This document shows positions 4,241 through 64,000 of a DNA stretch of 64,000 nucleotides, piece after piece. The stretch is from Candidatus Omnitrophica bacterium UBA6253 (GTDB lineage Bacteria; Omnitrophota; Gorgyraeia; Gygaellales; Profunditerraquicolaceae), in contig DJVP01000012.1 in NCBI GenBank assembly GCA_002441245.1, positions 325,504-389,503 of the forward strand. Direction: 5' to 3'. Numbering within the stretch: position 1 is the first letter of the stretch; each line of letters starts with the position of its first letter. The notes beneath the pieces were generated by a model. The model was not told the origin of the DNA. It ran no database searches and was given only the letters and a program-made list of their open reading frames with translations. A program made the translations under genes and the position numbers.

Positions 4241-4245
4241 TTTAG

Positions 4246-10160: not shown

Positions 10161-13100
10161 CACCGGCGAACTTCCGCTTTTCTTACTTTTAAACTTAATA
10201 ATTTCATAGCTATTATTTCCGGCACTCCTTAGCTCAACTTTTCCGGTTTTATTAACTTGGGCCATTAATACCCCTAATTCATCTTCACTAAGCATATCTT
10301 GCCTGCCTAAAATAACTCTAAAATAAAGTTCTAATTCATTGGCGTTGACCTTGCCCGAAGTTTGCTCTGCTCTTTTAAATAACCATTCGGTAACGCTTTT
10401 CATTTGTATCTTATTAAAACGTTTGCTTCCTAAAGATACCTCTACCGGAGAGCTAGATATATATATCGCTCTGTTTACAGCCAGTTCTTTTTCCATCATC
10501 TCCCAAATCCGGGGATAATACACCGCTTTTGTATATACCTCTGTAGTGAAATCCCCCAACACCCTTTTCAATAAACCGGATTTAATTGGAGGCGAAACTC
10601 GCTTAATTAATTTAATAGCCCCAATTCCGTTTAAATTTTTATTCGCCATAAGTCCGAGCAATAAACTTGTAAATGCACCGGCAGAAAAAGAGGTTGAGCC
10701 GTTTCCATCGATTGCAGCCATCGCAAAATCTCCCGGCAAGGAATCATCATGAAGTTCCTCTCCTGCCCATGATGACAAGGCTCCGACTGAAATCACGCCG
10801 GGGACACAAGAAGGAAATAGATCGTAAAAAATAGTTTCTTCATTTTTTCTGTTTCCGGCGGCGGCAATAAAAATAATATTTCTTTGAATCAAGCGCTCTA
10901 TCAACTTATAACAATCCAAATCCCGCAAAAGATCAAAATCTCCGGCAAAACTCATATTTATCACTAGTTTAGCTACCGGGTATCTATCCTGAAAATTTGC
11001 TATTTTTACCAAAGCCTCTTTAATCAATATCTTATTCATTGTTCTACCATCTAAATCGCCTACATTAACTGCCCATACATCACATATAGTACCCGGTTGC
11101 GTCCAGACGATTTTCAACACTATATCTCCGTGATACCCATAAAAATTATCAAGTACAAAACAAACAATCCGGCTTTTTGCCTCTGGAACAATTTTCTTTA
11201 TATCGTTTGGCTTAAATACAATATAACCACTCACCGGAGAACTGGAACGGCTTTTCGTAATTACCAACTTTAAACTGACAGTCGCGCCCAGCGATCCCCC
11301 GCTTACGTTTGAGATCATCCCGCGTTTGCCTAAAACTGGGCTCGATGACGAGGCTGCCGGCGAACTAAAATCACCGTCATTAATCAACCTAGAAGAACTA
11401 TCCCTTCCAAAAACAGGAGAGTTTCTCAAAAACATCAGCTCCCGCTGTAACCTCGCAGGCGAACTAGCCCTTAGCACTTCCACAGAGGAAGCGCCATTGC
11501 CTATTCTTATCGTTGCTTCTATCCACGCCCCCGGGAGATTATTATCATTTTTGATTGGTTGACTAAACAATGCTTCCCCGCCTTCGGCCTTCTCCAAAGT
11601 TTGAGTAATATTCCTGGTGTGTACCGTAACTTTACCGCCGTAATAACCTACAAAATCTTTCTTTACATAATAAAGCCCAACCCCTAAACTATTACCTCCG
11701 CTCAATTGTTCTTCAAAAGCTTTCTCTATGGGAATAGAAAATCCTTTTCCGGTATCGCACACACAAACATTATATTCTTCAGCTGTTTGCAATATTAAAA
11801 CCAGCATTTTAGTTTTAACGTGCTTGAAATTATGCAACAGGTGGACAAGGATTGATAAACGTATATCAATAACACCGAGCTTATCTGCTGTTTTACCCAT
11901 ATCTTCATTATTTTCTATTAATTCAGCCAATATTACGCCTTTCCCATTGCGTAAGTTTTCCAATGGATAAACACCTTCCAAAACCTGCATTATCAGATTA
12001 CGTTCAATCAGTGGAGAGGAAACCGGGGAGCTGACGCCCATCCCAGATAAAGGCTTTCCTGCCTGCAATTCCAGCATCCTTCTTGTTTCACCGTTGAGGC
12101 TTTTGACTCTTGCGTTTCTTATCTTTATGCCTGCAAAACCTTTAAACGCGTTCTCCAATGATTCAAAATCAAAAAATCGATATGGCATTCCATTAATATT
12201 AAACCGGTCTTTATGCAGGGGAAGTCCCTTGGCGTATTTATCATCGGCTTTTGAATAAACCATCGCAAAAATCTTTCCTCCCCGCTTAAGCACCCGCCAA
12301 GTTTCATCAACAATGCGCGTCATCTTCTCATCATCAAAAGAAATAAAGCTACAGTTAGCAAAAACCGTGTTAAATTCTTCATCCGGAAAGTTGAACGGCT
12401 CTGATAAATCCTGAATACTCGCAACAAGTCTATGCTGAATACCCTGTCTGGCCGCCTCTTGAGATATCCTGCTGATACAAACAGGAGAAATATCGGTAGC
12501 TGTAACAAAACACCCGATATCCCGGGCTAAGATAATCTCATCCTCTCTTCGTCCACAGCCTAAAGAAAGAACCCTATCTCCGTTTTTAAATAAGTTTTTA
12601 TTCAATAGCCGGCCCATAAATTCGCTCTGCGGCAGACTTATGGCCTGCCAAATCTGAGACCAATTATGTACTTGCTGACTCGCTGTAAGTATTCTGTTAT
12701 CCCTTAAGTAAATAGCCCTAGCAAATGCCTGACGTTCCTTTTGTAGTTTAACCGGCGAGCTGACAGTTGCAACAACAGGATACGGCTTAACCTTTTCCGC
12801 AATCAACCCCATCGCCCCGAGATAGCCTTTAGGGGCAAATATAAAATCATTGACTTGATACCCCCTTAACTCAAAAAGTTTTTTGACTCTCTGAAATTCT
12901 TCTTGATGAGGTGCTTCTATAGACATGCTCAAATACCCGGTATTAATAACTAAATCAAAAGCTCCATCTTCATTAATTATCTCTAATGAATCCCTATTAG
13001 CAGTACCATAATGCCTCCACGGCCCCATATTCAACAATCCGATTAAATTCCCGCTACCACGGAATTTCTGTAAAAAGTTGCTAATCAGCTCTTTTTGACT

Positions 13101-16100
13101 CAAATTTGCATTAAGAATATAAAAATCATCATCTTCTATCCACCCATGTTCTTCCAATATAACTCTTGCGAAACTTACGTTTCGGGAATTATTTTCTATT
13201 AAAATAACCCTGCGTGCCCCCAGGGAAAGTGCTATACAAGAAAGAACACTTGTCCCGGCCCCAAAGTCAACAACAATTGCGTTTTTAAACATTTCTTCTC
13301 TTGCCAGTATCGAGGCAATAGTGGAAACTGTAAAATCATTCAACGGCTGACCAGGCTGGGCTGACCAGGGAGAAATAAAGAAAATGAAATCGGAATGCTT
13401 GATATAAAGATCACCGAGCTTATCTTTATACTGTCTGGCCAATGCCCTCGCCTTCCGAGAAACCGACTCCTGAGACCACCCATAACTATCTGACAAAAGA
13501 ACAATAAATATCATCCGGCCTAACCTGTACATACTTCTGGTAAAATTTCTTTTAAAATTATAATCCTTATCGCCTATCTGTATTTTCCGGTTTCCTTCCA
13601 GGGGGAATCTTGAAAGAAGTTTTTCAATATCCCTGGACACTTGAGCCATCCTTTCCTCAGAAACTATCTCCATATCAGCAGGTACTGTTACCGCCCCAGG
13701 AAGGACAGTAGGAGTATGCGGTGAGATGGATAACCGGCTATGGATATCATCAATAGCCCTTTTAACCAACCGCTCATTTTCCTGCTTAATTCTTATTTCC
13801 AACTCCACGATATCATCCTTAGCTTTCTTTAATGCTGCGATTTTTATGTAAAGATCGCCGCTAAACTCTGGATGGAATCTATTCATTGGTTCCATAATAC
13901 GGTTAAAACTTCTTGCGATATCGCGGGCAACCCCCTTTGCAGACCTTACCACTGGTGAACTGGAGCACACTCCCGCTGCCGCTGCCTGACGCTCATAATC
14001 CGCTTCTTCTTGCGCCAAATTCCGAGTCAATTTGGGCCAAGAAAAACCGCCAACTTTATTAAGGTAAAATGAAACTGTCCGCTCCGGGAAATAACGCACG
14101 ACCGCCCCATGAAGAATGCTAACTTCGGAAAGACCCGCCCTAGTAATGAATAAAATATGCATTTGTTTGGCGAAACAATACAAACTAAAACCTTTACCCA
14201 AAAGTTTTCTTCCGTCGCTCGATAATCCGCCAAAATCCCTGTTCCAATCTTCATACTGGCAGCCAACTCCCAGGGCCAATTTGATATGCGCGCTACTCTG
14301 TTTCGGCACCGCCACATGAAAAATACAACGATCATTATGATAAAAACAGTGCCAATCGTGCCAATCGCTGTTAAAATGCCTCCTCCACTCGATCCCGTGA
14401 CCGACTTGCCCCGGAGATGCCGCGTTTAGCTCAATCCCGGTGACGGCTCCGGAGCCAAAATAAAACAGGAGTTTTTCAAAAGAAGTCAAGGGCTTGGCCA
14501 GATGTTCAAAATCTTTCAGCCGCGCCAGATCGTCTTTGCCAACGTTTCCCAAAATACGCTGCGCTCCATCGAACGCCTTAGACAAACCCAAGGTAGCCCT
14601 ATCAACTACCGTCTTGCGGAAAACCAACAAATGTGCCAGATCGATCTCTGGCGATGTGCGGCCCCTAAACTCAACATCTTCCGAGAGCCTTTTTCCAAAA
14701 ATTTCCTGGAATAAGTTGAGACGCTGAAATAAACCCACCGGAGCCCGTTCTTTAAATTCAGAAACGAACGCCCTTTGATCAAAGACAGGATACAAACTCC
14801 ACATTTTATGAATAGGGCTGGAACAAAGACCATAACGCGCTATAAATTCATCCTTCTTAATCTGCTGTTCAAAAAGATACTCTTCTATACTCCAGGCTGT
14901 TACGCCATCGTCAAAAACATCCCACCGCATATCCCTATGCCCTAAAGTCCTGATTTTGGCCAAGGTTGACTCGTTCCTTAATTCAGGATCATTCTGCAGT
15001 AATCTCTTAATTCCAAAAACCCTTAATTCATGGCCAAGGCCTACAAAACGGCGGGCTTCTAATTCAGGCAGCCTATTCCAAGGTGATATCTCCATGACTG
15101 CATAGCGGATATTCTGATATAAACTCGAGAAACCAACATCCAAATCAACCCAACCTTCTATTTCTAGTTTTTCATTATCAAAAGACAGGGCTAAATATAG
15201 TTGGCCTAAGCCTTCTGACTGCCACTCAAGAAAATCCCTGTAAGCTATTACATCCGAAATATGCTCTGTCTCAGGCTTTCCGTCAAACGATATCCATCTA
15301 TTAAAACTATTTGCCGCAGATAATTTCATAGCAGCATTTAATGATTTTGCCATTACCACCGGTAATTCCACCATAACCTTTCCGGCATGATTATGGCCAA
15401 GGACCACTACCTTGCCTTCCAAACCAATACCGCCATAAATCTGCGATTGAATGGTTTCTTTTACCGGTGAACTGGAACGCAGCTTAAGCGGTAAAGATGA
15501 ATAAGCTGGCTCAACATTTTTATAATAGCGCGCTAGCGTCGCCAGGGTAATATCGTCTTTTTCATTCCTGGCTTTCTTTTCCATATCTTCTAATATTTCT
15601 CCTCTGGTTTTCAAAATACCTCTTGAAACCAAACTCTCTATTCTTTTCTCCATTTCAGCGATTAATTCATCAATGGTTAAATAACCTCTTATCAACCCAT
15701 TCCGCCTGGCGGCCTGCAAAAGAGGAAGAAAATCAGTATTTTCCGAAACCTCGATATCAAGCTTTAATGCCAGACAGGATTTTTTAACTAAACCCCATAA
15801 AGAACTATAAGATGACCTACCCTGTATATCCATAATCTCGGCAAGGCTCTTACCGCAAGCCAATAACCTCAATATCTGCAGCTTGGCTAAACCAAATTTC
15901 TCCTGCTGTACCTTAGCCTGCAAAACAGATAAATCAAGTTCTTTAGGAATCTGGCCCATGCCCTGTAATGATTTTATTAAAACCAGGGATGTAGCGAATG
16001 GCTTTTTATGGCTCCCATTTTTTAACGTTATATTAATATTTTGTTTTCCTGCTCTTTTCTTGATATATGCCGGGCCGCATAAAACATCGCTCCTTGCTAT

Positions 16101-19100
16101 GCCAAGTTCATGATTAATTTCTTCAAAAGAAAGCCCTTTGGCTCTTAGCTTTAACGCGTTTATCTGCACATTTGAAAGGAATATTACCGCATTACGCGCA
16201 GAAGCGAACAACTTCATTTCTACCGCCCGCTTCAGGATTTTCTCAACAACTGCCGGGCCAAAACCCTTATCATCAATGCCAAACTTCCTTTTAATCCCGC
16301 GGATATGCCTCTTATTTGCATCCACCTTCACATATCTACTGCTTGCAATATCCCTGGATCTTACCTTTCCTTCCCGCATGAAGGCTAAAATATCTTTCTC
16401 CGCATCAGTTAACGGATTAACCAAAATATCAGGATAGATCTGCCTTGTTTTTTCTATTAATTGCGGCCAGGACTTCCTAATTTTACGTTCCAAACCAAAA
16501 GCATCAAGTATGGAATAAACGATTATTCTTACCGTTCCCTGATGGCTTAAATTTAAGGCACTGCCTATCACTTTATAAGGCTCCCGTTGGCACAAAAGTT
16601 TCAAGGTGACCAATTGACGCTGGTTAAATAACGGTTCAGCAACATATGCGCCCACCGGCGAGCTACTTGTAAATTCCCGGTTGATTTCAAGATATGCTTC
16701 CGGTTTCAAAGGAGTGAAATAAACAGGCCCGTAATAATCGTCTCCCCTAGTCCACCAGACTCCTTTTAACCCAGGTCCATAGGCATTGGAGTATTCTGGG
16801 CGGTTTCCTGCCTGGAGTACGGCCCTTACCAACTCTTGCGCAGGAATTTCAACATAACGCTCCAACCACCTTGGCCAATCATACTCAGAATCAGGAGGCT
16901 CTTGATGAACCAAATCTTTGATCCGAGACGTTTCATCTATTGAAGGAATATCTTTTGCATGTAATGAAGCGCAATAACCTGAACCTAAAAGTGAATTAAG
17001 TATAGTTCCCGGAAAACTATCATTAAACTCTGGCACATTGGGATACCCTTTCAATAGTTCATCTTGCGCCAAGAATGCCACTCGTACAGCTTCATCAACA
17101 AGGTTGTAATATCTGTCTCCACCATCTCTTCCTAGGGAAGACAAACTATTTGTTCTATCAGGGCCGTATGTTTTAGGAAGACCGATAATATCGCAATTCA
17201 ACCAGCCCTGCCAAACAATAGCATCGAAATCATAACCCCTGCTTCTTTCCTGGGGCTGCATTAAGTCTTCGAAGAATATTTTAATCATTCCTGCCAATTT
17301 ACGGCTCTGGAGATTGGTAAAACGGACTGAATGACCCAAGCGTAAGGCCTCTAACCGCAGAAATTCAAGCACACTCAAACCTATTCCTTTATATTCACCC
17401 TTCCCTCTGCTGTTAAGGGTATATATCACGGGTATGCTTATCTCTTTATATTCTGGATCTATTACTATATTCACGCGGTTACCTCTATGGAACTGGCCAT
17501 TAAAACCTATAGAATATAATAAATCAATTTTCTCTTCCCCTTTAGGCTCTCCATCTAAAACTAATTCAATGCCTATATTGTGATCCAATATATTCCTAAA
17601 TGATATTTTGCTTTCTCCTAAAGCGCCGGCCACATTAATATCAACCGGCGAACTACTCTTTTTTTCAATTGTTCCTGGATCTAATGCCGCAGCGGCTTTT
17701 TTGATAGATAGAAATACATCCAGCATGTAAAAATTACTCTCATATAAAACTTTCATGTCTATAGGATACGCAACCGCCTTGCTTATTCCCGGAAACGGAA
17801 AAATATGTACGCGCATGTTGTCAAACCAGCTTCTCTGCTGGTCTTTAACTGTGTAATTATCGCTATCGATAATCTTTACATCTAAATCGGTTTCTGATGT
17901 TATCGGCCACGGCTCACAAGACATGAATCTTTTAAGAATACCTCCATAGATATAGCAAGGAGGCAATAAACGGCCTTTCTGCTCATACAAACCTTTAACC
18001 TCTCTCAATACTATTTTCAGGTTAGTATTTAACAACCAGAGGGATTGCAAGAATTCATCAGATATACCGCCAGGCACCCTTGCACGATACTCTATCATTA
18101 TTTCTTGCGGGATAACTGGATCCTGAGGTACAGAGCTGTCTGGTAATGGGCTTGAGACAGATAACGGCAAGGCGGCAATAGCCATCTCCTTAAAGGTATC
18201 GTTACTTAAAAATGCGGGGTGCGCTACAGGCGAACTGGAAAGGTGCAATTTTATGCCTTCCTTGCGGTAGACTCCCACAAGGCGATTAACAACAGGCTGA
18301 AGAACTATAAATTCCCCTTTGCCATTCTTGTCAAAAGTAACGTTCCCCGGATTTTGCTCAAATTCCCTGGAAAGAAAACTGTGCCCGCTCTTAGTAATAA
18401 AAACACCCTCTCCGCTACCCATAGCCTCCTTGAATGTACGAACAGGTTTTTCTTCCAGCAGGTCTCGATAAACCAGGTAATATAGCCCCCAAAGCCCTTG
18501 CTTAAATAACTCAAACCAGCAAGGAGACAGGTCTTTCTTTATGGCTGGGAATTTCCCGCAGATTCTCGGCTTATCCCTGTCTTGGTATATTTTGCAGGAA
18601 GAAACGAATGTAAGGCCGGTGCTATTTGAGAAATCCAGGATTATCTGCAGCGCCCAACAGGGAAACCCTGAAACAAGATTAGATTGACCTATAATCGAAT
18701 AGCGCTGTTTAGGCTTGAGGTCGCCGATTGCAAAATACTCTCTTGTATATGGGCAATCTTTGCCATATTTTCTTCTAAGCACCTTTTTGATTTCTTCCGG
18801 AATCCATTCATCCCTAAAAAAACAACAGGCGGCGTCAACACATAAAAATCTCCTTCCCGGCATACTTCGAAACATCACCGGAATATCCTTTCCTGCCGGC
18901 GAACTGCTATACAGGCGCAACCTGATTACCGTTCCCTTATTATATTCACTATCAATCTCAAGTTCGCTTTCAATACCAAAAACATCCTCTATGCTGTTTA
19001 GATTACGTATACCTACTCCGGGGCTGCCTTTTTTGACAAAATCACCAGCGAGTATGGCTTCCACATCATCCATGCCGCTTCCATGGTCTATAGAAGTTAC

Positions 19101-22100
19101 TTCAAATACTTTACTGTCTGCATGATCCCCATAAATCTTCACCAGGAAAATACCCCAAATTGCATGCCTCCATATATTAGTCAATAATTCTTCTATGATA
19201 ACCCTGAAAGGATTCTCGTATTCATCAAAATCAAATCCTGAATTATTCAATAAAAGCATTATCCCCTGTTCAACATCTGCTGCTAAAGCCTCACCTTTAC
19301 TGGATAGCTCTATAATATTCTTATGTTCATTCGAATTGAGATAGCTATCATCCAAATCATCTTCCTCTATGACCCAGGCATTCATAAACAAATTCCTGCC
19401 CTGTTGTCTTGCCCTATCAATCATACCCCTGGCTAACTCTAAATTATTATCCCAGACCGCGTCCTGCAATAGATCAACGTCGATTACATCTGAAACAGGG
19501 ATGATTAGCGATGGGTTTGAATCAGATAGCGGCAATGCGGCAACCGGAGAGCTGGGATGATTTAAGAACTGTTCAAATTCTTCTACCCCTGCTCTGCCCC
19601 GTGACCATTCTTTAAGTTTATTTTTATATACCAAGAGGTCTTTAAAACCTGTCCGCCTGATATATTCCGCAAGCGGCCCAAAGTAGTTATTATTCTTTTT
19701 GTTAAATTGCCTGACTGTGGCATCCATAACAAATACGGCATCTTTATTTACAAAAAGCAATACGCAATGAAAGTTTCCGCATACCCAACCGCTAACCAAT
19801 AAAGAAGGAATGGAAAACTCCCTGAATAATTTATCCGGGATAAGCGAACAGGCTAATTCACAGGTTTGCTCCCGGGTTAACGGGAGACGGGATATTTCTT
19901 CTTCCATGTCTCGGGCTATACTCGGCCGGTTATTTCTCAGGGTTTCATTCTTAACTTCCTCCAGTTGCGTGATTCTTATCGCTATCGCCTCCCTGGCTGC
20001 CTCCTCCATGATCCTTTCGGCATCCTGGTATGAAATTGCCGGCCTGGCTGCTGGTGAGCTAACAACTGTATTAGCGCTGAAAGAAACCTCACAAGCATGG
20101 TATGACCACAGCCAGGGGTTAAGTTCATTTTGCGAAACCAATAGTCTCTTAATTTCACCCCTATCTTTCATTTCTTTAATCCATTTCGCTACTGGCTGGT
20201 TAACGGGTGTTAAGATCATAAATTCGTCGCATCCGGACTTTTTAAGCATAGCCATCATTTCTGACCACATTTTTTTACCGATGCCCCTGTGCTGAAACTC
20301 AGGATGCACCGCTATGGTAAGAATTTCCGCATCACAGAGATCTTTTCCGTCACGGCCGCATACCCCTAATATCCCTATCAATTCCCCTTTATGGAAATCC
20401 AGTATAAAAGTACATGTAGGATTAACAAGCACATCCCTATCCAAGCTGCTTATGTGGAATGAAGATAGCCCCGCGGACTTAAGTAAATCCAATATCTCTT
20501 CCCAGAAAGTAAAAAAACCATTGCCCCCCACAATCACTGTTATATTCTCAAGATCGTTTTTCTTCTCCCTCTCTATCGGAGAACTGGATATTTGCCCCGC
20601 GCCGGGCATACCAAAATTGAATTCTCCTTCTGATAACATCAGCCTATGCCCGGAACCAGACACAAATATATTTCCTTTGATTTTTTCTAAACCCCTGGGG
20701 AAACTTCCAAGCTGCATAACTGCAGTAAATCGGTCTCTTTGGCCTTCAATATAAAAATTAAAATCATGCCTTAAATCACAGGGATAAAACCCTGTATTTA
20801 ACTGGGCAGGCCTGGAATAGCGCTCCTCATACGGCTTATCATCGACATTTATCTGCACCAAGCCATTCTCTCGGTAATGTATGTACACCCTATGCTGCGT
20901 GTTATCATAAAATATAAAAGTAAACTCCGGGCTCTTACGGTTTACCCTAACCGCAATCGCGTCATTTTTGTGAACAAGTTCTATGCGGAAAGAATCGGCA
21001 CTGTGCTCTATTCTATTTTTTTTGCTTGCCGGAGACTCGCTAAAACCAGCATTAGCTTCTAAAATCCTCCTGAAGAATAGCCAGCATTTTGTTCCGGATA
21101 TATCCCAGCTTTCCCTGGCTGGCACAGCTTCAAATACATTCTTAATTTTTCCTGTAATCTTGCTGATAAAATCCTCAAACCGGACACTCCCTATGTTAAG
21201 ATATTGCCTGGAAATAGCCGGAACAATCCTGGCAATAGGAATGCGGTTAGCTGCCAAGAAGCTTTTTATTTTACGGATCTCGCTTTCAATCTGCCGGTCA
21301 TCCATGTTAAAAATATTCGCCCAAAATGCCATTCCGCCGATAGATAACCTCGTCCTTAATGAAAAGAAATCAAAGCAGAAGGTCAGCCATATTTCCTTGA
21401 CTTCACCGCCATTAAGATAGCCCTTGATTTTCTCTAAAATAACCCCTCGCTCATCACAAGCAGACCAGTTTGTCCTGGTTGCTCTTGCATTGTTAGAACC
21501 ATCGTAATATGACCTAAACCAGACTAAATATCCTAATCCATCCTTCTCCATCCTGCTGCCCCAGTTACCTATATTACGAAGCAGGCTATTGCCTAAATCA
21601 TAATCTTCATGTGCGTCCGCATTAAGCACCAGTATTTTCCCGCCTAATTCTTTAGCCCTGATTTTTATAAGATCATAAATGTCAGAATGGTCTTCAATCG
21701 GCTGATTAAGGATTACGACTTTTACCGGAGAGCTGGAACGCTTACGCAAGCTGGCTTGCTCCAGAGAATGTTCGTATAGTTCCGGGCGCGGGTTTTCGGA
21801 CGCGGGAAGCTTGCGGAGAATTATTTCTATTATTGTGGCGTTATCAGGATAAAATCCGCCCTGGACCCCCTCTATTAATCCTTCTACCCTTAAAAGGAAT
21901 TGCCGGCCCAGCTCGCTAAGGATACCCCGGTTAGCTATTAATAACGCCCTGGTTTTTAGCAACTTATTTATCACAGAATCTGTTTCATCCGGGTAATCTG
22001 AAGCCGAAATAGGCGAGCTGGTTATATGAGCTATCGGCTTACAGGCTTCATCAAGGAAAAGGAGTTCCTGATTATAATCCTTTCGGGTTTTCAACCATCC

Positions 22101-49100: not shown

Positions 49101-52100
49101 TATACCAAATCTGCCCTTCAAGATCTTTCCGATATACCATACTGCGCCATGCACATCTACATCACTTTCCACGATAACCGTTATCCCCAAGATGTCAGTT
49201 AGGTCTGATATTGAAGTGTATTTTTCGTCCCCCCTATTGATCTTTAACCACGCGGTAAAAGCCTTCTTAACCCTGTTTAAAACAGTTGCCCTTATCCCAT
49301 CTTCATTAAGCCCATTTCTTATATCTTCGGATAAATCGTTTAAATATTTATTGGCATCCGTTCGGCTCCTTCCGATAACTGTTTCGATTTCTTTCTCTAT
49401 AATGTTATGGATACTGCCGGCGTAATTTCTGAATACTTCATCCAGGAAATCCCCGGCCAATTCATCCAAACCCAATCTCTCAGCCAACGGAGCATATATA
49501 CAGGCTATCTCCTCTAACAAATCCTTTTTTCCTGTATAAGTAGAAATACTTATGAACTTATCCGCCAACACCAGATATAAACCCTCGATGCTTTCGGAAA
49601 GTCTTATAACAAGATTGATGCGGTTATTAACGGCTTCCTGGTCTTTGTAATTTAGACCATACGGAAGGTTAATTAATCCGGTCAGCCTCTTTACATAAGC
49701 GATAATTCTTCCTGCCTTAGACTTATCAACCCCCAGCCCTTTAAGTATCCGTTTTATCTCTTTCTCCGAGGAGACCTTATGCAAATAAGCAGCATAAATA
49801 ACTTCTTCCTCGGAGGTAAATTCCAAGGCCTTAGCCGCTACTCTTTTTGTATGTGTAAAATATGTCTCTCCAGAAGAAAATTTCTTGCCCCTGTATTCTT
49901 CGCTCAAGATCTTCTCTATCTGAACAATCCGTTCGCCTCTAATCTCTACCGGTGAACTGGAGTAAAAAGAGTTATTCTTTCTAATATTCCCTATATCCTT
50001 AGCTGAAGAAAGCGATGCCCCTTTCAGAAAGACTACATATGGCCTTTTTTCTAATAAGGGCGCTAATCTCATGGCTGAGTTCAAGCCAGTTGCCAGAACC
50101 ACTCTTTCCTTTAACACTGCCTCCCGGCTCGATAAGAAAGTTATAGCCAGAGAACCAGCCCGGGTATTTAGCATTGATAAAAATCCCTTCAATTGTAGAC
50201 TCAAGGCTAGCGAACTCAAGAACCTGTAAATCGTGCATTTTACTCCTCCTTTGTTAATTAGATTATTAGAAAATAATATCTCTTTCCCTGTAATCTCCAT
50301 CGGCGAGCTAGAAACACCATCTCTCTGAATTAATGACCTTGAAGGCACAAATAAAGAAGCCCCCAAAATCCCGGTGCAGCCAACTATTTCTTTTAGCCCG
50401 TGTATTCGGTCGGCCTCTATTAATATAATATCTCTATATCCCCTGGAATTAAGTTCGTCTTTCAAGGCAGTGAGAATGTTCTTTCTGTTAGAGCTTTTGA
50501 TCAACCATCCGCCTAAAATAAAAATACTACAACCTTTAACGCTTTGCCAGAATTGTCTTTCCAATTCTTCAGGAATATTAACTATTAATTTTCTACCGCT
50601 ACCCTCATAGATCGCAATGATAGCCCGGGATAAATCCATACCTACCTGGTTAAATATCGAGATACTGGATGCCCGAATCAAAGCATCCGTTGAATATGTC
50701 AACTTGCTAAGGGATTCACCGTCAATCCTGTCTAATTTTTGTAAAACAGTATTCTGGCAGGCAAGATTCGCAATCCCCTTGCCGCTAATAAGATCTTCAC
50801 AGGTCAAATAATCCTTAGAAAACTTTCCCTTGCCTTTACGGATAACAATATCGAAAAATTGTTGCGGCCCGGGCATAATAACTACCTGATTATTCTTAAT
50901 GAACAAACCTCCGGCCCCAAAACCGGTGCCGGGAATAATATTAATAATTTTAGGAGCAGTTTTAAGCCTGTCTTTAACCGACGCAAACTCTCTCGAATTA
51001 ATCAAAGAAAGTAAATGGTGTGTCATAGCCAGGCTATGCGCAACGCCGTCATTATTGATAAACACCTGCCATTCTTTGCTTAATCTATCTATTATTTCAT
51101 CTGCGAACTTCAAACGCTCCAAATCAGGCACATTGAAAGCTGTTCCGCTATAAACCAGCCCGTTTTCTTGCCAGGCGCCGGGAGCTGAAATACCTACAGA
51201 CTTTAATAAACGACGACTTTGCATCTGCTTGCTTCTTAAGCCCTCCTTGATCAAAACAACCATGGAATCGATTGCTTCAGGTAAATCAACAACTTTTTCT
51301 CCATTAATAATCTTAAACGGATTCACACAAGAACCCTTCCAGAGAATAATCGGTTCGCCGATAAACTGACCTTTTCTAATTTTTCTTTGAACTAATGCTA
51401 CTCTTATGTTCGTGCCGCCAAAATCAATAGCCGGAATTACAACCGAGCTGATTCTATCCAAGGGATTAGTTAATTCTTGTAATGGTGAAGAGCTGAATAT
51501 ATTACTCGATTCATTAAAAGTTTCAGGCGTCAAAGACCCTAGTCCTTCAGCATCATAGATAATACCAGAGTTAGTTATCTCGGTTTCATCTATGTAAACC
51601 CCTAGTTTGGTTAACCCATAAACAAAATTATGATATATCCACTTTCCGCCGTCTGTTAACGGCAGATCTTGAGACATAGGGAAAGTTTCTAATCCCTGAA
51701 GACTATAACTGATCCAACTAGTAAACAATGCATGAATAGGATAATAATACGGCTGGATAATTACGGGATTATAAACATATAAACCAGCTAAAGGCTGGTC
51801 TTTTATTGCCCGATACAGGTCTGTTCTAGTAATTTTTCCTTCAGCAACGCCCATATCGATGATTTTCGGCAGCATCTTTGCATAAAGATAGTATAAAAAC
51901 CTCGTATTATCGTGCGTCTCGTTGTAATGCTTATATTTTATAAATATTGCGTCCTCGCAAATAGTGCCGATAGCATCAATTTCAACCGGATTAAGCAGTA
52001 GTAGGTAAGCGCTTTTAGTGTGACCGCCCCCGGGGGAAATAATTACTTTTACCCCTTCACGGATAGCAAGCTCTCTAAAATTGTAAACCTCTGCACCCCC

Positions 52101-55100
52101 CTTTGTAATACTTTGCGGTCTCCAGAAATTGCCTATCCTTCTAAGATCATTGGCGAGAATAATGTTTCCATCTATGCTTATATTAGAAATATTATCTACA
52201 ACAATCCCTTCATCCAAAGCCACCTTTCGCTCAGGAGCAAGGCGCATAGAAAGCATGTCCCAGCGCTTTTCGCTGAATTGCTTAATTATTGTATCCAGAT
52301 GAGAGATTATTCTCCCGGGGATTACGTCCTTAATCCTCTCCTCTATGGATAACGGCTTAAGCCAGAAATTACCTCTTATACAATTTTCCGGAATAATATC
52401 AGGTAAAAATTTTCCAACGTCTACAAAAATCTTCCAGCCATAAGGCAAAGCTTCGTGAATTACAGTAAAACAACAAAGTAATCTATTTAAAATAATCATT
52501 AGATTAACATCATCAATAATAATAACGGCTGGCAAAATATCTTCCATGATTTTTTCAAGATTTACAATCCTCTCTTCCGCTACCGCTAATATCCTAAGCA
52601 ACACAGTCTCAATTCTTTCTCTTAAAACTAAATTATCTCCAGTCTTCTTATTAATATGTTTATTTAGTAAGATAAGAAGAGGCTTGTTTGCCAAAAGCTC
52701 TATCTGTTTCTTGACCTGACGCATCCCTGACGGAATAAACCATCTATTTAAACCACTCAGGAGACCAAATTGACCATTCTCATAGATAGCCTCATCAATA
52801 TATGAATTTGCTTTAAAAATATCCTCCGGGCTATGTATATCCGGACCAATAATACTCTTTAATCTCCCAATAGCAGTCAGCCTTATGTTAAGAAGAGATG
52901 AGGACGAATGTTTATATTTATATAGAGACTGGACCCTGGCAAAGTTTAGTTCCGATAAATCTCTTACAACAATATCTGCACCTGCCTCTTCCAATTTCTG
53001 ACTGTTACCCACCCTGTCTATACCAATTATTAAACCGAAGTTCCCTCTTTTAAAAGCCTCAACACCTAAAGGAGCATCCTCAAAACCGACACACTCTTCA
53101 GGTAAAACTCCAATTTTCTGGGCAGCTAACAAGAATATCTTCGGGCTAGGCTTACCTTCGCCAACATCTTTCTTAGTTATAATGACTTTAATAATATTAT
53201 TGAAAACGCTTTCTTTTAAGTAATAAGAAAAAACTGTCGCGGAGCCTACTGCTATGCGGATATTTTGTCGGTCTAATTCTTTTATAAGAGATGCAGTTGA
53301 ATCAAATAACGGGACTCCATTGCTATCCCTAACGAACTCGCTAATCGCTTTTTCTTTCCGTTGGTCTAATTCCTGAATAAATCCCTTACTTGCACCGGGG
53401 AACATTGCTTTAAAGGCATCCTTACCGCTTACTCCATTGGCAAATCTATTATATAGATTCAAATCAAAATACTTACCTTCCCTCGCTAATATTTTTTTGT
53501 AAATCTCAAACCAAACCAATGCCGTATCCGCTATCACCCCGTCAAAATCAAAGATCGCGCCCTTAAGAACACTAGCAGGGTTTTCAATGATAGATGAGGA
53601 AGATTTTAGATCTAACTGAGAACTTGCATAAAGCGCAGCGCCTATAGCGCCTCCGTATTGCCTATCCACACTCGACAAAGAAACCGTAAACCGCCCTTCA
53701 TTAGCTTCACTCAATAAATTATTGATTCCTTTTAATATTCCTGTTCCGGCTTCCGCTACCGTAATACCTCCTGTAATTATGAATTTTGTATCCTGCCTCA
53801 TCCTATTCATCAAGCGCATCCAGGAATAAATTGAATGTGATAAATCACAATAAACTCTTCGCGCCTCCGCATACCCGATTTGATCTCGATTCTTTAATAA
53901 CTGACTTATCTCTAAAACACTAAGATTATCTTTCCCTGCAATACCAGGTAAAGCGAACTTCTGGGAAATCCTTAAGATACCACTGACTCCGGCAAAAGCT
54001 GCAAAACATCCTTTAACGCTGCATCCTTGGTCAAATGGAGCATCCTCTCTAAGGTTGACCACAAAAGCTCCGCTCTGTTCAATTCGACTCATATCTATTA
54101 ATCCACCTTCAAACCGAGCGCATCCTACTCCGGTACCTAAAGCCAAAAGCACTCCATTATCTATTTTGTCATAATTAAGTGCGGCTACGGCAAACGAGGT
54201 TACATCATTTAAAACCCTTACACATTCAATGTGATATTCTTTTTTTAGTTCTTCCAACATGCTATGTAAATAGCCATAGTCTTCCCGGAAATCCGCATCC
54301 ACTCGCTCATGAGCCTTCCCCCATTTGTATTCATAATTAACCAACCAAATAATGTTACTTTCAATCGGGTTTACTACTCCCGGCAATGATATCCCTATGC
54401 CATCTATCTTATAGCCCTTAGACATATCTTTAGCTAAATTCATTATCAAGTCTTTCAGTTCTTTCCCACCGGTAGTCACGGTATCAATCGTAGTTTTTTC
54501 CATTACTAACCCATCCCTAACAACTACGGACTTTATTGTTGTTGCTCCGACATCGATTCCGATAAAGGCCCCTTTCATCATTTCCGGAGGTAAAGGCCCT
54601 AACAAATGCCTGACCAACTTATCCATCAAAAACTGATTTTCCTTACTGTCATACGTTAGGAAACTAACCTTATTCCCGAAATTCGCGAAATATTCCAACC
54701 TCTTGAAATTATCTTTAAGATGGTTCGCTAAAAGATAAAATACCGCCTCCGACATCTTCTCATTGGTTGAGCCAACGTATACTTTTTCCGCGCTAAAAGC
54801 AACAATGTAATTGTAGAGGAAAGAAGATATGTAATTAAGAACACTCTGTCTAATTGGACCTTCAAAGAGTTCTTTTACAAGAGGAATTGAAACCTCTCTC
54901 ATTTCAAGCCCAGACTGTAAAGCAACCAGTATTCTATGGCTATTAGGATATTTGTTAGTAATCAGGGCAAAAAGCATATCCCAATCATTAATATCTCCGG
55001 ATGTCAGCGCCTCTTTAATAAGGTTTTTTAAACCAGATTCATCGCTTAATGCCGGAACAGTCGGATCAAAAATCTTTGTTTTATTTTTCTTGACGATATA

Positions 55101-58100
55101 ATTACCAATGAACAGTGTATCGACATCTTGCATATATCTAAAAGTATTCAGGGCTTCTTCCGGATTCTCTACTAATGGTTCATGCTTGTTAAAAGAAGTA
55201 TTGACCACTGCCGGAACCCCAGTCAATTCCCCTACCTTATCCAAAAGTTTCAAATAAAGGGTGTTATGTTTTCCGTCTACAGTCTGGGGCCTCGCTAGTC
55301 TTTTCCCATATTGATGAACTCCGGAAGCCAACATATGTTTCTTATCCGCAAGGACGTCAAAAGCAACGACCATAAAGGGAGATTTGTAAATTCCCTTAAA
55401 ATATTCTTTCGCGACAGACTCAGAAATACTACAGGCAGACGGCCTCCATAACTGCCTTCCCTTTAGAATATTGGCGGTATTATTGGCGGTGTCGTCCAGA
55501 AGGTTTAATAAAATGCTTCTTGCGCCTAGCGCCCGCGGGCCTAACTCGCTTTTCCCCTGAAACCAGGCAACCGGCTCATTTTCTACTATCAAACGAGAAG
55601 CTTCATCTATTATTTTTTGATCGTTTGCCGCGATATAATCAATTCCCTGTTGAAGCCCAAACCGATCCAGAACTTTTCGAATTTCTTCATCACTGTATTC
55701 AGGTCCATAAAAAGCATGCTCCATTTCAAAGAAAACATCTTGCCCATATACCTCTTTAGCAACCACCAAAGCCGCGCCGATCGCTGTTCCGGCGTCGCTT
55801 GCTACCGGCTGAACAAAAATATCTTCGCCATCCACTAATCCATCGGAAATGATCTTCCCATTCGCTAATATATTCAAAGAAATCCCGCCGGATAAAGACA
55901 CCTTTTTAATATCTCTTGTCTTACGGGCTTCTCGAAGATGATACCTTACAATATCTGTTACAATGCTATCTGTCGTTTCCTGAAGCACAAAAGCCAAATT
56001 GGCGAAAGACCTGTCTTCAATCAAAAGAGGATCAATTTCTTTGCTATTTTTTGTACATAAAGGAACTAATGCCTGGAGCTTCTTTACCAGCGCGTTGGTA
56101 ACGCGAATCTTTCCAGGCGCAATACCTCCATAATAAAGATATTCGGGATTAGCGACCAATTTTCCACTAGTAGAATCAAAATATATATAATCATTGAAGA
56201 TTTTCCTTAGATTTTTTACCCGGTGTCTTTCCGTATCGTCCCGTGGTTCTCCATATGGAGCTAAGCCCATGATCTCGCCTTCTGCAAAAGTAGGCCGGAA
56301 GCCAAGATATTCTGTCATTGCAGCCCAAACCCATCCTAATGAATTAGGCAAGGTATAATTTCCGATTCCTTCCATTTCTCCATTATCACCGATCCAAATC
56401 GTCCCTGAATCAACATCTCCATAGCCATCCAGACAAACAACCAAAACAGGGTCTTTGAAACCACTGAGGTAATATGCCGAAGCAGCATGCGCAAGATGAT
56501 GACTGATAAACGAAATTAAGGGAGTGTATCTAGTATTATAGTATTTTCGCATTTCAGCCAAAAACTCTTCCAGATTACCGATGCTAAATCGCGCTTTATT
56601 CTTCTCGGGAACATTTCTGCGAATAATCCCTTTAATAGTAATATTTTTTTTTGCGGCAAACTCTTCATCCATTTTCCGAAAAAATTCATCCGAGGGGGCA
56701 GGAGAATGCGGAGTATCAACGTAAAGATTATAATTCCAGCCAATGGCAATATGAGCTATATCTTCTAACGATATATTCTCATCTTTAAGAAGCTTATGAA
56801 TTGCCAGAATAGGAAACTTTGAAGCATCGTGCTTAGTCCTAGACATACGTTCTTCTTCTAAAGCCGCTACAATCTTTCCGTCTTTCAGCAGGACTGCGGT
56901 AGAATCATGCCAAGAACCAGATATCCCCAGGATATATTGACCTTTTCTATTGGCGCCGAAATCACCTTGGTATAATTTTATCGTTATCCCGTCGTAGAAG
57001 ATCCGATCTTTAAGGCCGGCATACTCAACGGGAAAAATGTCATTTTTGTGGAAACGGACAAGTCTATCAGCAAAATACAAATCAATAACACGGTCTTTAT
57101 TAATAGTTACCCTCTGGACGCCGGAGATCTGACTAAGCAAGATAATCATTTCTTTATCGGTAAAGACGTTAAAGCCGTTACAAAAATCCATAAAGTTATT
57201 CAAATCATACTGATCTATCATGATCCCATTATCTGCGAGCGTCCTGAAAATAATATCCTGCTCTCTGGTGATCCGTGAAAAAAGCTCTTCCATTTTATTC
57301 AACCCTTCTTCAAGGGTCCTATTCTTCTTTAAAAACCAGGTCCTAGCGACAAAGGAATCAACGCCTTTACGCAAAATTCTATGCAGGCTTTCTTCGTTGA
57401 TCCCACCGTCGATTTCAATCGGAACATTGTGGATACATCGTTCACGGAAGAATTTCCTCAACATGGCTATTTTTTCCAAAGTTGAAGGAATAAACGGACG
57501 ACTGCAGGCGCCCGGGACTATCGCCATCAGCATAATAGATTCTATTTCCCTACCGATCATCTCCGATATATTCTCAAGCGCGGATAAAGGAGTTTCAGGA
57601 TTAAGCACTAAACCAAATTTTAAATCTAATCCTACGGTCTTTCTAATAATATCCTTCAGTTTCTCAATTTCATTAAATGATTCAAAATGAATGAGTATTT
57701 TATCCCTTTTGCTTTTTAGTCCGGCATCAGACATTCTTTTTACAAGAGAGAAATCCGGTGCTACGGACATCAGGTGGACTATTAAAGGCAACTTTGTGAA
57801 AGAAAGCTCCCGAATCTGCTTACTGCAATCAAATGCCTCAGAATCAGGAGTAAATACGCCGTCAAGATAATCGATATGTATCCCATTCATCCCCGCGGCT
57901 TCCACTCTCCTTACCTCTGATACAACTTCCTCATCCAAAGCTGATAAGATCGAAAAGTAAACATTTAGCGATTTTATTGAGGTAATAGCGGAAGACGACC
58001 CTACCGGAGCGTACCATCTGATTATCTTTGAGGGGTGGTTAGAAGTGTTGGTAAGGGTGAATTCTTTAAGATAAGCCGGGATTATGGCGCAGTCATTGGT

Positions 58101-61100
58101 AGAGAGAGTTTCAGGAGAATAGTTAGGAGCATTGATCTGGACTGAGCCTTCTAAGATGAATATAGGATAGCCGTGGTCATTAGCTTGCTGGCTTATTCGG
58201 GTGTTAAGAGTAATCTCATCTACGATTACTTCAGTGGTGGTAAAGAGATTATCAATATGATTACCTTGATTATCATTAAACAGGTTTGCTCTCTGGCTGT
58301 AAACTTTAGCTAAGTTTATTTTATCATAAGCAGGAATATTGGCTCTGATTAAAGCATCATTTAAAACCTCCAGAGCTCCAACTATATCTTCTTTGCCTGG
58401 CCTGGGTGATTTACCATCAGTCCTGTCCCAAAGAGCAACTGTAGCTCGTTTTAAATCACCTTTCTTGATTTCTTCACCTGTTGGAGCATGAGACCATTCC
58501 CAGATGGTTGTGCCAAACCGAATAGCATGGATTAAACCACCTCCAACTAAGATCAAATCGTTTTCTTTAGCATTTAATTGATACAGTAGGTTTTCTAAGC
58601 TTCCTTCATTGTAGGCTCGCAAAAGGATTTCAGCAGTTATATTTTGATTTAGGCCCAGATATAACTTTGCTCCGCCTGGACCAACCATCCACATCTCAGG
58701 CTTAGCAGGCCTGGAAGAATGACCTATAGCCGGATGAACCTGAACCCCCAAGGATAAACCGGCATCAATTAACTTCATGATAGTAGCCATGGATCTGCCG
58801 TATCTTCTGATATGTTCACCACCTAAGATACGTTCCCCTTCTTGCTCTAAGAGCTGGATGAGGTTAAGATTAGAATCAACTACCTTTGAAGGATAGGTTT
58901 GATCATCTGAGGCAAGCCATAATTCACCTACAGGCTCATTCTCAGGATTAGCTTTATTTACATCAGCTATATCTCCAGCTGGCAGGTCCTTGTAAGTCAA
59001 TCCTAAAAGCTTTAAGATATTTGATTCCTTGGCAGGCCTGCCCCAGGTGTAAGTATGCTTACCGGTGCGGATGTTGGCGCTATAGATACGAACTATAGCG
59101 CTGAGAGGGGAGGAAGAAACATAAATCCTCTCTACGTCTTGTTGGGTTAAACCAACTTCGGCCAACTTACGATAAAGTTCTTCATTGGCAATTAAAATGT
59201 GCCCGGTCATTTCTAAGCTGGCAAATTTAAGCTTATGGCTACCATTTAAATTGATTTTTGCGTATTCATCTTGACGTGGAAATAAAATAGCCCTCGGATT
59301 ATTTTTTCTTAAGTTAAATGACAAATTATAAGGCATGTTCTTAAGCGATAAATTATTAATGTCTATTAATGTTGCTTCACTCAAATTTTCTATATCTTTT
59401 TCTTTAAACATAAACGCCGGAGCCGGCCAACCCATAATCAATCCTTCTTTCGTGGGATCATAAGCATCGATGTATTTCCAGATATTGGTCTGTTTCTTAA
59501 AGATCTGGAAATGTAAGTGGTGTACGGAATGGCCTGCGCCAGGGCTATTAAAAGTGGCTTCGTAATCTTCACCCATTGCCTTTAAAACTAACAAAGTATC
59601 TTCTACTCTTTTAGCATCCAATGATTGTTTCCGATGCTCTTTGCTAACCAAATTTAGGTGAAATGGAACATAGGGGAATTTATTGGCTATTAATTTATAT
59701 TCTCTCCCTTCTATTTCAATCTCGGCTAAAACCTGTTTATCCAGAATATTGCAAAAAGGACAAAGCGAATTATTATCATTCTGTTGATTAACGTATCCTT
59801 CCCTTAAATTAAATAAAACTACTTCTATTTCAGCTCCGGAGCCAAGCGTTACTTTCTGGGAAAAAGTATCAATAAATTTGTAAGCAAAAATGTCTCTATC
59901 GCTACAAGATAATTCCTGGAAACGCTTTTCAATAATCTCTTTAATTACTCCTGATTTTACATTGTTGTTTATATTTAGCTTCAGAATTGCTTTAATTGGC
60001 GAAGAAACACTGGGTTTTTCAGTTTTGTTCTTTCTCTGAATTTTTTGATTTACCAGATAAATAGTCCCATAAGCTTGGGCAAATCTGCGTAAATTATCAT
60101 CTGGAACTATTTCTTCAGGAAAAATAATCTGGGGTATTAGAGCTCTAAGATGAGGGAAATCTCTTTCTATAGTTTCTTTTAAGCTCTCATAGTAAACTTT
60201 ACCAGCTAAACAATTAAAATCTTTATTCTGAGCCTTATCTTTAACTTTAACCTTAGTGATTCTACCAGTGAGAAGCAATTCGTCTGGAAAGTCCGGCCCA
60301 AAATCATAATATATATCATTTAAAAAAATAGCCAAATGCTTACCTAAGTGCCGGAATATTTCTACCGCGTCTTCATTATAATCTTCTCTTTCAGGAGACG
60401 TCATAAGCTGTAATTCCTCTAATCTTTCTGCCTTCTCTTTTGCTTTTAATTCTATATTTTTCTCTTTAGCCAATCTAAAAGCTGCCTCCTGAGCTAAATG
60501 TTTCTGGGCCGCATCTAATATACCGGTGTTTTTGTTTTCAGTGCCAGCTTCCTTGTCATCTGTCAAGATCACATTGCTTGCCCTCAAAAACATCGGGGTT
60601 AATTCGCCATTCATATCCACATAACCAGCGCCAGGAGAAGTTCCAACTGCAATACCTAAAATATTGCCTCTTTCTTTTTCTACGGCAGCCCAGAAAGCAG
60701 TAATATTACCATCGTTAGCAATAGCCACTTCGGTTTTAAATTCTTTTCCTATTTCTTGAGCTAATAAACCTAACTTATCAAATTCATTCCAATATTCTTC
60801 TTTAGACCACTCTTCCCGATTCCAACGCTTCTTTCTATCCTCTTTAGCTTGTTCAATCCCTTCTCTCGTTCCTGTAATTCCCAGGCTTGCGGTTTTACCG
60901 GTATCTCCACCAACAATTAAGCCATTATAATTTTCATCATTAATTATCATATCCGGCCAGCTTATTCCAATACCTACTATCTTCTCATTATTTCCTACAG
61001 CCTTCAATACTTCCGGTATTACAATTTTATTAATGAAATCAATATAGTCGCTAGCCCGAGTAAAATCTTCCGGCTTCCAGCCCTCTTTTTCACCAAACTC

Positions 61101-64000: not shown

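Follow-up and report, generated by a model that had tools for sequence, protein, structure and literature searches.

We analysed a 64,000-nucleotide stretch of the Candidatus Omnitrophica bacterium UBA6253 assembly (contig DJVP01000012.1, positions 325,504 to 389,503; hereafter the window), whose minus strand carries a giant open reading frame (ORF) in which a short peptide, Ser-Ser-Pro followed by an aliphatic residue, recurs between modules. In the ORF listing of the window, this frame spans 7680..63938 and comprises 18,752 codons without a stop. The ORF is incomplete: the frame runs open to base 64000, with no in-frame stop in the 20 codons upstream of the nominal GTG at 63938 (window 63939-64000), and the uridine-kinase domain that gives the first Pfam match lacks its N-terminal half. 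The gene therefore extends past base 64000, exceeds 18,752 codons and does not start at the GTG at 63938. The window holds the last 18,752+ residues of a giant protein of the Omnitrophota 'multi-enzyme' kind.

7680-64000, minus strand: giant ORF, at least 18,752 amino acids (aa), stop codon at 7680-7682, frame open at the window edge

Module content of the giant ORF

Pfam and NCBIfam scans showed that ~25 distinct families tile the giant ORF. Sugar and nucleotide modules comprise uridine kinase, DUF4922, phosphomannose isomerase, ribulose-phosphate epimerase, carbamoyltransferase and ROK kinase, together with beta-phosphoglucomutase, a starch-synthase-like GT5, a GH77+GDE debranching enzyme and HAD, and the other enzymes include a CofD-like protein, S-adenosylmethionine (SAM) methyltransferases, a B12-radical-SAM enzyme and GNAT. 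Regulatory modules are represented by RelA/SpoT, a SpoIIAB-like HATPase, several LuxR-type helix-turn-helix (HTH) domains, sigma-factor-like regions, TPR and an ECF sigma factor. SpoIIAB-like anti-sigma kinase modules, several LuxR-type HTH domains and sigma-like regions were found at aa 14799-15014, 17310-17494 and 7909-10822, and module M52 (window 7683-10160) consists of a TPR region fused to a complete ECF-type sigma factor, which ends at the stop codon. A regulatory network is thus encoded inside the putative polyprotein. The windowed part (18.7 thousand aa) contains a single transmembrane (TM)-like segment (aa 11179-11205, module M21, window 30324-30404), and its remainder looks soluble; no SecA, C39 or dockerin domain was found in this part, the N-terminal part of the gene lying outside the window. 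The overall architecture is one of ~55 cassettes of about 100-800 aa, each usually a complete enzyme or regulator.

A Ser-Ser-Pro-aliphatic junction peptide

The junctions located by motif scan are listed below with their aa position in the giant ORF and, where applicable, the neighbouring module or the relatives in which they are conserved (L and P numbers; see below).

63552-63566, minus: SSSPV, aa 125
61653-61664, minus: SSPV, aa 759
59994-60005, minus: SSPI, aa 1312
59103-59117, minus: SSSPL, aa 1608
57984-57998, minus: proline-less SSSAI, aa 1981, 5 aa before ribulose-phosphate 3-epimerase
53589-53603, minus: proline-less SSSSI, aa 3446, 8 aa before beta-phosphoglucomutase
52893-52907, minus: proline-less SSSSL, aa 3678, after beta-phosphoglucomutase
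51480-51494, minus: SSSPL, aa 4149
50298-50312, minus: SSSPM, aa 4543
49947-49961, minus: SSSPV, aa 4660, before RelA/SpoT module
48468-48479, minus: SSPV, aa 5154
48324-48335, minus: SSPA, aa 5202
48273-48284, minus: SSPV, aa 5219
44742-44756, minus: SSSPV, aa 6395
44649-44663, minus: SSSPM, aa 6426, before GH77+GDE debranching module
41820-41831, minus: SSPL, aa 7370
41040-41054, minus: SSSPV, aa 7629, before HAD module
40212-40226, minus: SSSPC, aa 7905
37824-37838, minus: SSSPV, aa 8701
37254-37265, minus: SSPV, aa 8892
36027-36038, minus: SSPV, aa 9301
33918-33932, minus: SSSPI, aa 10003, conserved in L003, L006
31470-31484, minus: SSSPI, aa 10819, conserved in L003, L005, L006
30735-30752, minus: SSSSPV, aa 11063
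30237-30251, minus: SSSPL, aa 11230
29340-29351, minus: SSPV, aa 11530, 3-6 aa before CofD-like module
28134-28148, minus: SSSPI, aa 11931
27705-27719, minus: SSSPV, aa 12074, conserved in P0001, L003, L005, L006, L007
27036-27047, minus: SSPI, aa 12298
26487-26501, minus: SSSPV, aa 12480
25938-25952, minus: SSSPT, aa 12663
24480-24491, minus: SSPV, aa 13150
23808-23819, minus: SSPI, aa 13374
22008-22019, minus: SSPI, aa 13974
21723-21737, minus: SSSPV, aa 14068
20574-20588, minus: SSSPI, aa 14451, before GNAT module
20049-20060, minus: SSPA, aa 14627
19542-19553, minus: SSPV, aa 14796
18894-18908, minus: SSSPA, aa 15011, 5 aa past the end of the HATPase_c domain
18225-18239, minus: SSSPV, aa 15234
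18144-18155, minus: SSPL, aa 15262
17643-17657, minus: SSSPV, aa 15428
16653-16667, minus: SSSPV, aa 15758
15462-15476, minus: SSSPV, aa 16155
14811-14822, minus: SSPI, aa 16373
13950-13964, minus: SSSPV, aa 16659
12750-12761, minus: SSPV, aa 17060, before methyltransferase module M44, conserved in P0001, L006
12021-12032, minus: SSPV, aa 17303, after M44
12009-12020, minus: SSPL, aa 17307, in tandem with SSPV aa 17303
11454-11465, minus: SSPA, aa 17492
11355-11366, minus: SSPA, aa 17525
11334-11351, minus: SSSSPV, aa 17530
11232-11246, minus: SSSPV, aa 17565, immediately before subtilase module
10443-10457, minus: SSSPV, aa 17828, immediately after subtilase module
10161-10172, minus: SSPV, aa 17923, before TPR + ECF-sigma module M52

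The first-pass annotation had reported a reiterated Ser-Ser-Pro-hydrophobic peptide at a frequency above compositional expectation, and both statements were borne out. The translated ORF contains 52 S{2,}P sites, compared to 3.1 +/- 1.8 expected from shuffled sequence, and in 50 of the 52 the next residue is V, I, L, M or A (SSP[VILMA], 1.0 expected); the longer form SSSP[VILMA] occurs 27 times (0.08 expected). The coordinates it gave were largely accurate, 49 of 53 falling on S{2,}P sites, whereas 48295, 32616, 25926 and 25380 correspond to NSPV, YSPV, NSPV and ASPV, respectively, sites of a kind that shows no enrichment, the total of 12 non-Ser xSP[VILMA] sites being near chance. The site list was also incomplete, having overlooked SSSPT at aa 12663, SSPL at aa 15262 and three proline-less junctions (SSSAI 1981, SSSSI 3446 and SSSSL 3678; 0.16 expected), and the spacing, previously given as 27-1830 aa, was measured as 4-2541 aa with a median of ~230. 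Several junctions are clustered 4-48 aa apart, at modules M8, M9, M11, M37, M45 and M47-49 (window 11232-11465, 48273-48479, 44649-44756, 18144-18239 and 12009-12032), and five lie within aa 17492-17569, just upstream of the subtilase module.

Alignment of the junctions revealed conservation only from -3 to +1 relative to the proline, [S/V/A]-S-S-P-[V/I/L/A/M], five positions in all, the flanks carrying less than 0.6 bit in one analysis and less than 0.35 bit in another. When ten giant proteins were pooled (53 thousand aa), SS-P-[VILMA] was found 166 times against 3.5 expected, a 48-fold enrichment, and ST, TS, TT, SA, AS, SG and GS before P-[VILMA], counted in the same set and the same frame, occurred at background level. 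Both serines and the proline are therefore specifically required, which argues for a specific site rather than a loose linker, as such substitutions should be acceptable to a passive Ser/Pro linker but not to a binding pocket.

Junctions delimit modules

Pfam domains make up 22% of the ORF, yet none of the 52 junctions falls inside one (P=2.4e-6), and this avoidance was replicated in the related fragments L006 and L007 (0/34, P about 0.04). NCBIfam full-length models (ribulose-phosphate epimerase, beta-phosphoglucomutase, CofD-like, RelA/SpoT and HATPase) start 3-9 aa past a junction and stop 5-16 aa short of the following one. When the entire giant protein was compared with itself by BLAST, no off-diagonal matches appeared; module-versus-module BLAST did find paralogs, which align over their full length from junction to junction (M17 with M40 at 64% identity, M16 with M39, and M26 with M27). 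Free-standing homologs of M52 begin no more than ~7 aa from the junction position, which shows only that M52 can exist alone.

The longest junction-free stretch, M4 (aa 1612-4152, window 51495-59102; 2,541 aa), joins five enzymes, namely phosphomannose isomerase, ribulose-phosphate epimerase, carbamoyltransferase, ROK kinase and beta-phosphoglucomutase, and the three proline-less SSS[A/S][I/L] sites sit exactly between its domains. The earlier claim that sites coincide with domain boundaries thus holds in that no junction interrupts a Pfam domain, and needs qualification for M4, where some boundaries are degenerate or carry no junction. Judging from this arrangement, M4 may be a deliberately uncut multi-enzyme unit.

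Conservation at the peptide level and codon preference

Selection on the peptide, as proposed in the first-pass annotation, is supported by orthologous junctions, which keep Ser-Ser-Pro while their codons drift, including switches between the AGY and TCN boxes. Codon identity at orthologous junctions is 43% for Ser and 35% for Pro, and so does not exceed the 52% and 42%, respectively, seen at conserved residues elsewhere. Per-column identity across alignment-internal junctions (12 pairs) was blurred by the length of the serine runs and was not used as evidence. Serine codons of both boxes occur at every position, with 57 AGY and 47 TCN at -2 among 104 pooled sites.

The accompanying statement that the motif is not conserved at the codon level was too strong. 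Spellings of Ser-Ser-Pro are diverse, with 32 distinct forms in the window, and yet fewer than the 41.4 +/- 2.5 expected from codon usage, and TCG, the rarest serine codon, occupies -1 in 45/104 pooled junctions compared to a background of 8.7% (4-5-fold, p=7e-21), but only 7/78 non-junction Ser-Pro dipeptides (p=2e-7 versus junctions). CCG is likewise over-used for the junction proline. The consensus spelling is TCC-AGY-TCG-CCG-GTN (for example at 12750-12761 and 16653-16667), and the TCG preference is also seen in relatives. Translational pausing may lie behind this TCG-CCG preference, as may gene conversion or microhomology between junctions, or another cause.

Beyond the 15 nt of the junction we found no repeat or RNA element, and the junctions have neither a ribosome-binding site nor a start codon associated with them. 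The first-pass annotation had likewise argued against RNA elements and ribosome-binding sites, in agreement with the lack of any Rfam match in the window and with a depletion of Shine-Dalgarno-like sequences upstream of the junctions (2 versus 10 expected).

Related giant proteins and cassette exchange

The nearest database relatives are metagenome-assembled genomes (MAGs) of Candidatus Omnitrophota (NCBI/GTDB). Five giant-ORF fragments from other Omnitrophota, open end to end, carry 12, 3, 3, 20 and 14 SSP sites (L003-L007, respectively; L003 from a GTDB MAG, L004 and L005 from a second MAG, L006 and L007 from a JGI metagenome), all of them followed by V, L, I or A. Four more proteins emerged from an exhaustive HMMER search: P0031 (32 sites, 7,051 aa), P0026 (20), P0029 (7) and P0004 (5). 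In the ten pooled giant proteins, 179 SSP sites occur in 53,157 aa (3.4 per 1000 aa), 93% of them followed by V, L, I, A or M; eleven other giant fragments (45,396 aa) contain five. Genome and metagenome scans gave 3 and 2 loci, and phylum-wide generality rests on the 10 motif-bearing proteins.

Modules M19, M22, M25, M26 and M44 of the window align end to end with relatives, junction to junction. Module order varies, and whole modules have been gained or lost at junctions in P0001, L003, L006 and L007, with breakpoints relative to the window no more than ~5 residues from junctions. For instance, M23+M24 are absent between the M22-like and M25-like modules of L003, another module takes their place in L006, and the methyltransferase M44 has different partners in P0001 and L006. 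We conclude that the junction peptide is genuine, under selection and present across the clade, and that it marks the limits of cassettes that can be exchanged.

Two side observations concern these relatives. P0003, P0033 and P0005 carry mostly proline-less serine runs, SSSS[L/I/V/A], in place of SSSP[V/I/L], which suggests a graded family of junction variants among related giant fragments. P0029 (NCBI MBC8358853.1), a 2,060-aa fragment with seven SSP[VILMA] sites and an M52-like module, is labelled Candidatus Aminicenantes; it is either a mis-binned Omnitrophota contig or an instance of the system outside the phylum.

A second junction peptide, GARLA

A de novo k-mer scan identified a different reiterated peptide in P0024, a complete giant protein of 4,971 aa that has no SSP junctions, and none in several other giant fragments. 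P0024 contains 20 copies of [S/T]GARLA (0.3 expected), spaced 64-535 aa apart, which bracket complete PALP, glucosamine-6-phosphate isomerase and HAD domains. The underlying DNA is nearly uniform, TCC GGC GCG CGG CTG GCG (GGC 18/20, CGG 15/20, CTG 12/20). The occurrence of SSSP and GARLA in different lineages resembles the 'site alphabets' that co-evolving protease/site pairs produce. Directly downstream lies a gene for a 688-aa protein with a signal peptide and the metzincin motif HEVGHSFGLRHH (Reprolysin_3, E=4e-6), a possible partner protease for GARLA, although a weak candidate since it is predicted to be secreted.

L010:10001-24916: P0024 gene, on the 233-kb contig J055_10000017 of JGI 3300001199
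L010:25013-27079: gene of the 688-aa metzincin, directly downstream of the P0024 gene

A candidate protease within the giant protein

Module M50, enclosed by SSSPV on both sides, is a predicted compact subtilase (family S8).

10446-11234, minus strand: M50, aa 17569-17831
11148-11150, minus strand: M50 catalytic Asp17597
11130-11132, minus strand: M50 catalytic His17603
10851-10853, minus strand: M50 oxyanion Asn17696
10689-10691, minus strand: M50 catalytic Ser17750

Taken alone, M50 gave weak S8 matches (Pfam E=3.5e-4, mycosin model 2.6e-5, PDB subtilases 0.005), and a homology search with M50 alone returned no matches, its relatives coming from the exhaustive search. Alignment of M50 with nine free-standing homologs showed invariant Asp29, His35-Gly36, Asn93/Ser95, Gly127-Asn128 and Thr181-Ser182, columns that make up the full subtilase catalytic set, with Asp, His, Asn and Ser intact. 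The nine closest homologs are annotated as PF00082, and the family profile retrieves more than 1,000 PF00082 proteins. An AlphaFold2 (AF2) model computed with the alignment (pTM 0.74) places the Asp at a strand end and the His and Ser at helix N-termini; a single-sequence AF2 model (pLDDT 42) was discarded. The top 50 Foldseek hits of the retained model were all subtilisin or PCSK9, at probability 1.0 and TM about 0.6. The closest free-standing homolog, P0066, is surrounded by housekeeping genes and no giant gene. A relaxed Pfam scan found no second protease among the unannotated modules.

The junctions as proposed processing sites

Our preferred reading, to which we assign about an even chance, is that the junction is a protease recognition site and the giant product is cut as a polyprotein. 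The translation product would be cleaved at [S/A/V]-S-S-P-[V/L/I/A] into ~50 proteins at fixed stoichiometry by a site-specific endopeptidase recognising the standardised pentapeptide. In subtilases and elastase-like serine proteases the substrate residues P4-P1 are bound in extended, strand-like form, with a preference for Pro at P2 and for aliphatic or aromatic residues at P1, classic examples of such substrates being Suc-Ala-Ala-Pro-Val/Phe-pNA and the NisP site Ala-Ser-Pro-Arg. As a subtilase substrate, the junction would present P4-P3-P2-P1 = Ser-Ser-Pro-aliphatic with no prime-side requirement, and we would place the scissile bond after the aliphatic residue because Pro at P2, small residues at P3/P4 and an aliphatic P1 are favoured by subtilases. 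The best candidate enzyme would be M50, embedded in the same chain, which could excise itself at its two SSSPV sites and then act in trans like viral polyprotein proteases; our confidence in this assignment, which draws on sequence and model, is lower than in the protease site itself. The proline-less SSSA or SSSS sites followed by I or L might be slow or uncleaved, keeping the enzymes of M4 fused.

Several points weigh against this reading. The occurrence of cleavage, its position within the motif and the responsible enzyme are all inferred. Cutting at the clustered junctions would release tiny spacer peptides, two domain boundaries of M4 lack any junction, and the TCG-CCG preference shows that a factor beyond the peptide is also at work. 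M50 on its own narrowly misses the PF00082 gathering score (20.4 vs 21.8 bits), and only five residues separate its Asp and His, an unusually short spacing that is a trait common to its family. M50-like modules were found in none of the other giant fragments analysed, those that bear the motif being partial genes, and no M50-like domain is embedded in a giant protein among the top 120 profile matches. Furthermore, the free-standing relatives of M50 look membrane-anchored or secreted and have ordinary gene neighbourhoods.

The main rival, unlikely in our estimate yet the strongest of the alternatives, is an uncleaved standard linker or hinge, with the protein remaining whole or in few pieces. 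Serine would then confer flexibility and solubility, proline would break secondary structure, and the aliphatic residue would start the next domain, perhaps with a translational pause, rare TCG followed by Pro, for module folding. The junctions are the sole spacer between otherwise complete domains, TCG is enriched exactly at -1 with CCG at 0, proline-less variants occur at boundaries, and published work treats the giants as possibly functional whole, all of which a linker would accommodate. However, passive linkers tolerate T, G, A or N and variable length, whereas near-variants are at background here, and the aliphatic residue is kept after modules of unrelated folds. GARLA, being chemically different, argues against a shared physicochemical solution, and it is difficult to see how sigma factors, anti-sigma kinases, LuxR-type DNA binders and soluble sugar enzymes could function while tethered. 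Overall, the strict Ser-Ser-Pro, the aliphatic residue, the embedded subtilase and the second junction alphabet favour a specific recognition site over a passive linker.

It is improbable that the junction is primarily a DNA-level cassette joint, a recombination footprint arising by microhomology or at a specific site, with the peptide incidental. Such a joint would fit the variable module order with breakpoints close to junctions, the reduced number of spellings around TCC-AGY-TCG-CCG-GT and the near-uniform GARLA DNA, but not the use of both serine boxes at each position, the swapping of codons and boxes between orthologs with DNA no more conserved than at other kept residues, or the lack of any repeat or RNA element past 15 nt. 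A role in DNA-level shuffling may nevertheless coexist with a peptide function, be it protease site or linker.

We rate slightly lower still a modification or docking site, through Ser O-glycosylation, Ser phosphorylation or a parvulin-type prolyl isomerase acting on the Ser-Pro bond. Ser and Pro are strictly required, glycosyltransferase and kinase modules are numerous in these giants, and a conserved Rotamase_2 prolyl isomerase has been reported beside Omnitrophota giant genes; this explanation leaves the boundary-only position, the aliphatic residue and GARLA, which has no Ser-Pro bond, unaccounted for, and no such enzyme was identified in the window. Translational recoding, by 2A-like release and restart or internal initiation and requiring no protease, has hardly any probability: proline is central to 2A-type skipping and the +1 set V, I, L and M overlaps the residues of near-cognate start codons, but there is no D(V/I)ExNPGP-like consensus or conservation upstream of -3, the +1 codon is ATG, GTG or TTG in 9/52 only, GTT and GTA dominating, and Shine-Dalgarno depletion and the absence of Rfam matches led us to reject both internal initiation and 2A-like skipping on sequence grounds. 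Intein/Hint autoprocessing was also rejected, as no such family appeared in the Pfam and NCBIfam scans and the junction has only 4-6 residues.

Returning to the protease-site reading, a broader extension, which we put forward more tentatively, is that multi-enzyme giant genes are natural 'fuse-and-cleave' replacements for operons, one ORF giving rise to 50 or more separate proteins, with lineage-specific sites (SSSP-V/I/L or [S/T]GARLA, depending on the clade), a co-evolving protease (here the embedded subtilase) and junction DNA that also serves as a cassette joint.

Comparison with known systems

The gene class itself has been described, as 'Archaeovorins', Omnitrophota giant genes (West-Roberts et al. 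2023, bioRxiv 10.1101/2023.11.21.568195), and as the 'multi-enzyme metabolic cluster' class of a 2026 preprint (bioRxiv 10.64898/2026.06.07.730766). Cleavage of Omnitrophota giants by S8/C39 domains has been proposed without sites, the cleavage points being stated as unknown (10.1101/2023.11.21.568195; 10.64898/2026.06.07.730766), and neither giant-gene preprint mentions a linker, junction, polyprotein or cleavage motif. Our literature search for SSSPV, SSSPI or SSPV as a cleavage site yielded nothing relevant. The giant gene class and the suggestion of S8/C39 cleavage were thus already known, whereas the junction motif was found in neither preprint.

Like the described giants, the window gene has an ORF well above 10 thousand aa, an S8 peptidase domain and a shared Pfam repertoire (starch synthase, ROK, HAD, HD, radical SAM, GNAT, HATPase_c, methyltransferases and TPR), with PilZ genes, a solute-binding protein with permeases and a glycosyl hydrolase directly downstream, an arrangement described as typical. 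Many TM regions and a SecA DEAD-like domain have been described in full-length giants; the windowed part, which lacks the N-terminal portion of the gene, has one TM-like segment and gave no SecA match.

By analogy, the closest functional counterparts would be viral polyproteins with cis-encoded proteases and engineered nif polyproteins. Viral polyproteins (nidovirus pp1ab/3CLpro, picornavirus 3C, potyvirus NIa) share the single long ORF, a short site at the boundaries of unrelated proteins, an embedded protease flanked by its own sites and lineage-specific site sequences. They have roughly 7-15 sites compared to ~55 here and use chymotrypsin-like or papain-like proteases rather than a candidate subtilase, and the window gene is cellular, bacterial and DNA-encoded, with cleavage presumed. 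In the engineered nif polyproteins, whose components are separated by TEV sites (Yang et al. 2018, PMC6130400), as in the arrangement proposed here, many enzymes share one giant ORF with a standard protease site and fixed stoichiometry; that 'fuse-and-cleave' design is, however, engineered, with a viral protease in trans and a handful of proteins per ORF.

S8 processing enzymes (subtilisin in its prodomain autoprocessing, PCSK9, kexin/furin, and lantibiotic leader peptidases like NisP) share with M50 the S8 fold, the Asp-His-Ser triad and the oxyanion Asn, and the P2 Pro, small P3/P4 and aliphatic P1 of the junction fit the subsite preferences of subtilases. M50, in contrast, belongs to a divergent compact subfamily with its short Asp-to-His distance and no recognised prodomain, and its specificity is putative. 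NRPS/PKS megasynthases likewise have very long ORFs and exchangeable modules, with recombination tending to respect boundaries, but their modules are mutually homologous, carry a tethered intermediate and stay uncleaved, whereas the modules of the window are unrelated stand-alone proteins joined by a strict pentapeptide.

If the broader 'fuse-and-cleave' extension is correct, no known polyprotein system would come near this one in size, and it would be the first cellular polyprotein encoding a broad slice of metabolism and regulation. The junction and its protease would also offer a natural compact protease/site pair for synthetic polyprotein design. Whether giant Omnitrophota proteins (up to >100,000 aa) act whole or cut is an explicit open question that the strict junction makes directly testable, and the junctions are the first concrete candidate cleavage points for these proteins. 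The junction also exposes how giant genes evolve, through cassette shuffling at junctions.

Surroundings and assembly

Downstream of the giant gene lie six ordinary genes (2,135 aa in total), in which SSP does not occur.

1119-7587: two PilZ genes, a solute-binding protein and two ABC permeases (sugar-type importer), and a glycosyl hydrolase

Over positions 2193-16500 the window matches a contig of JGI metagenome 3300001594 at 100% identity. A second assembly of this locus, L002 (JGI 3300001592), differs from window 2193-16496 by one mismatch and four indels, which split the giant gene into two called genes; these indels and the split are probably an assembly error rather than biology.

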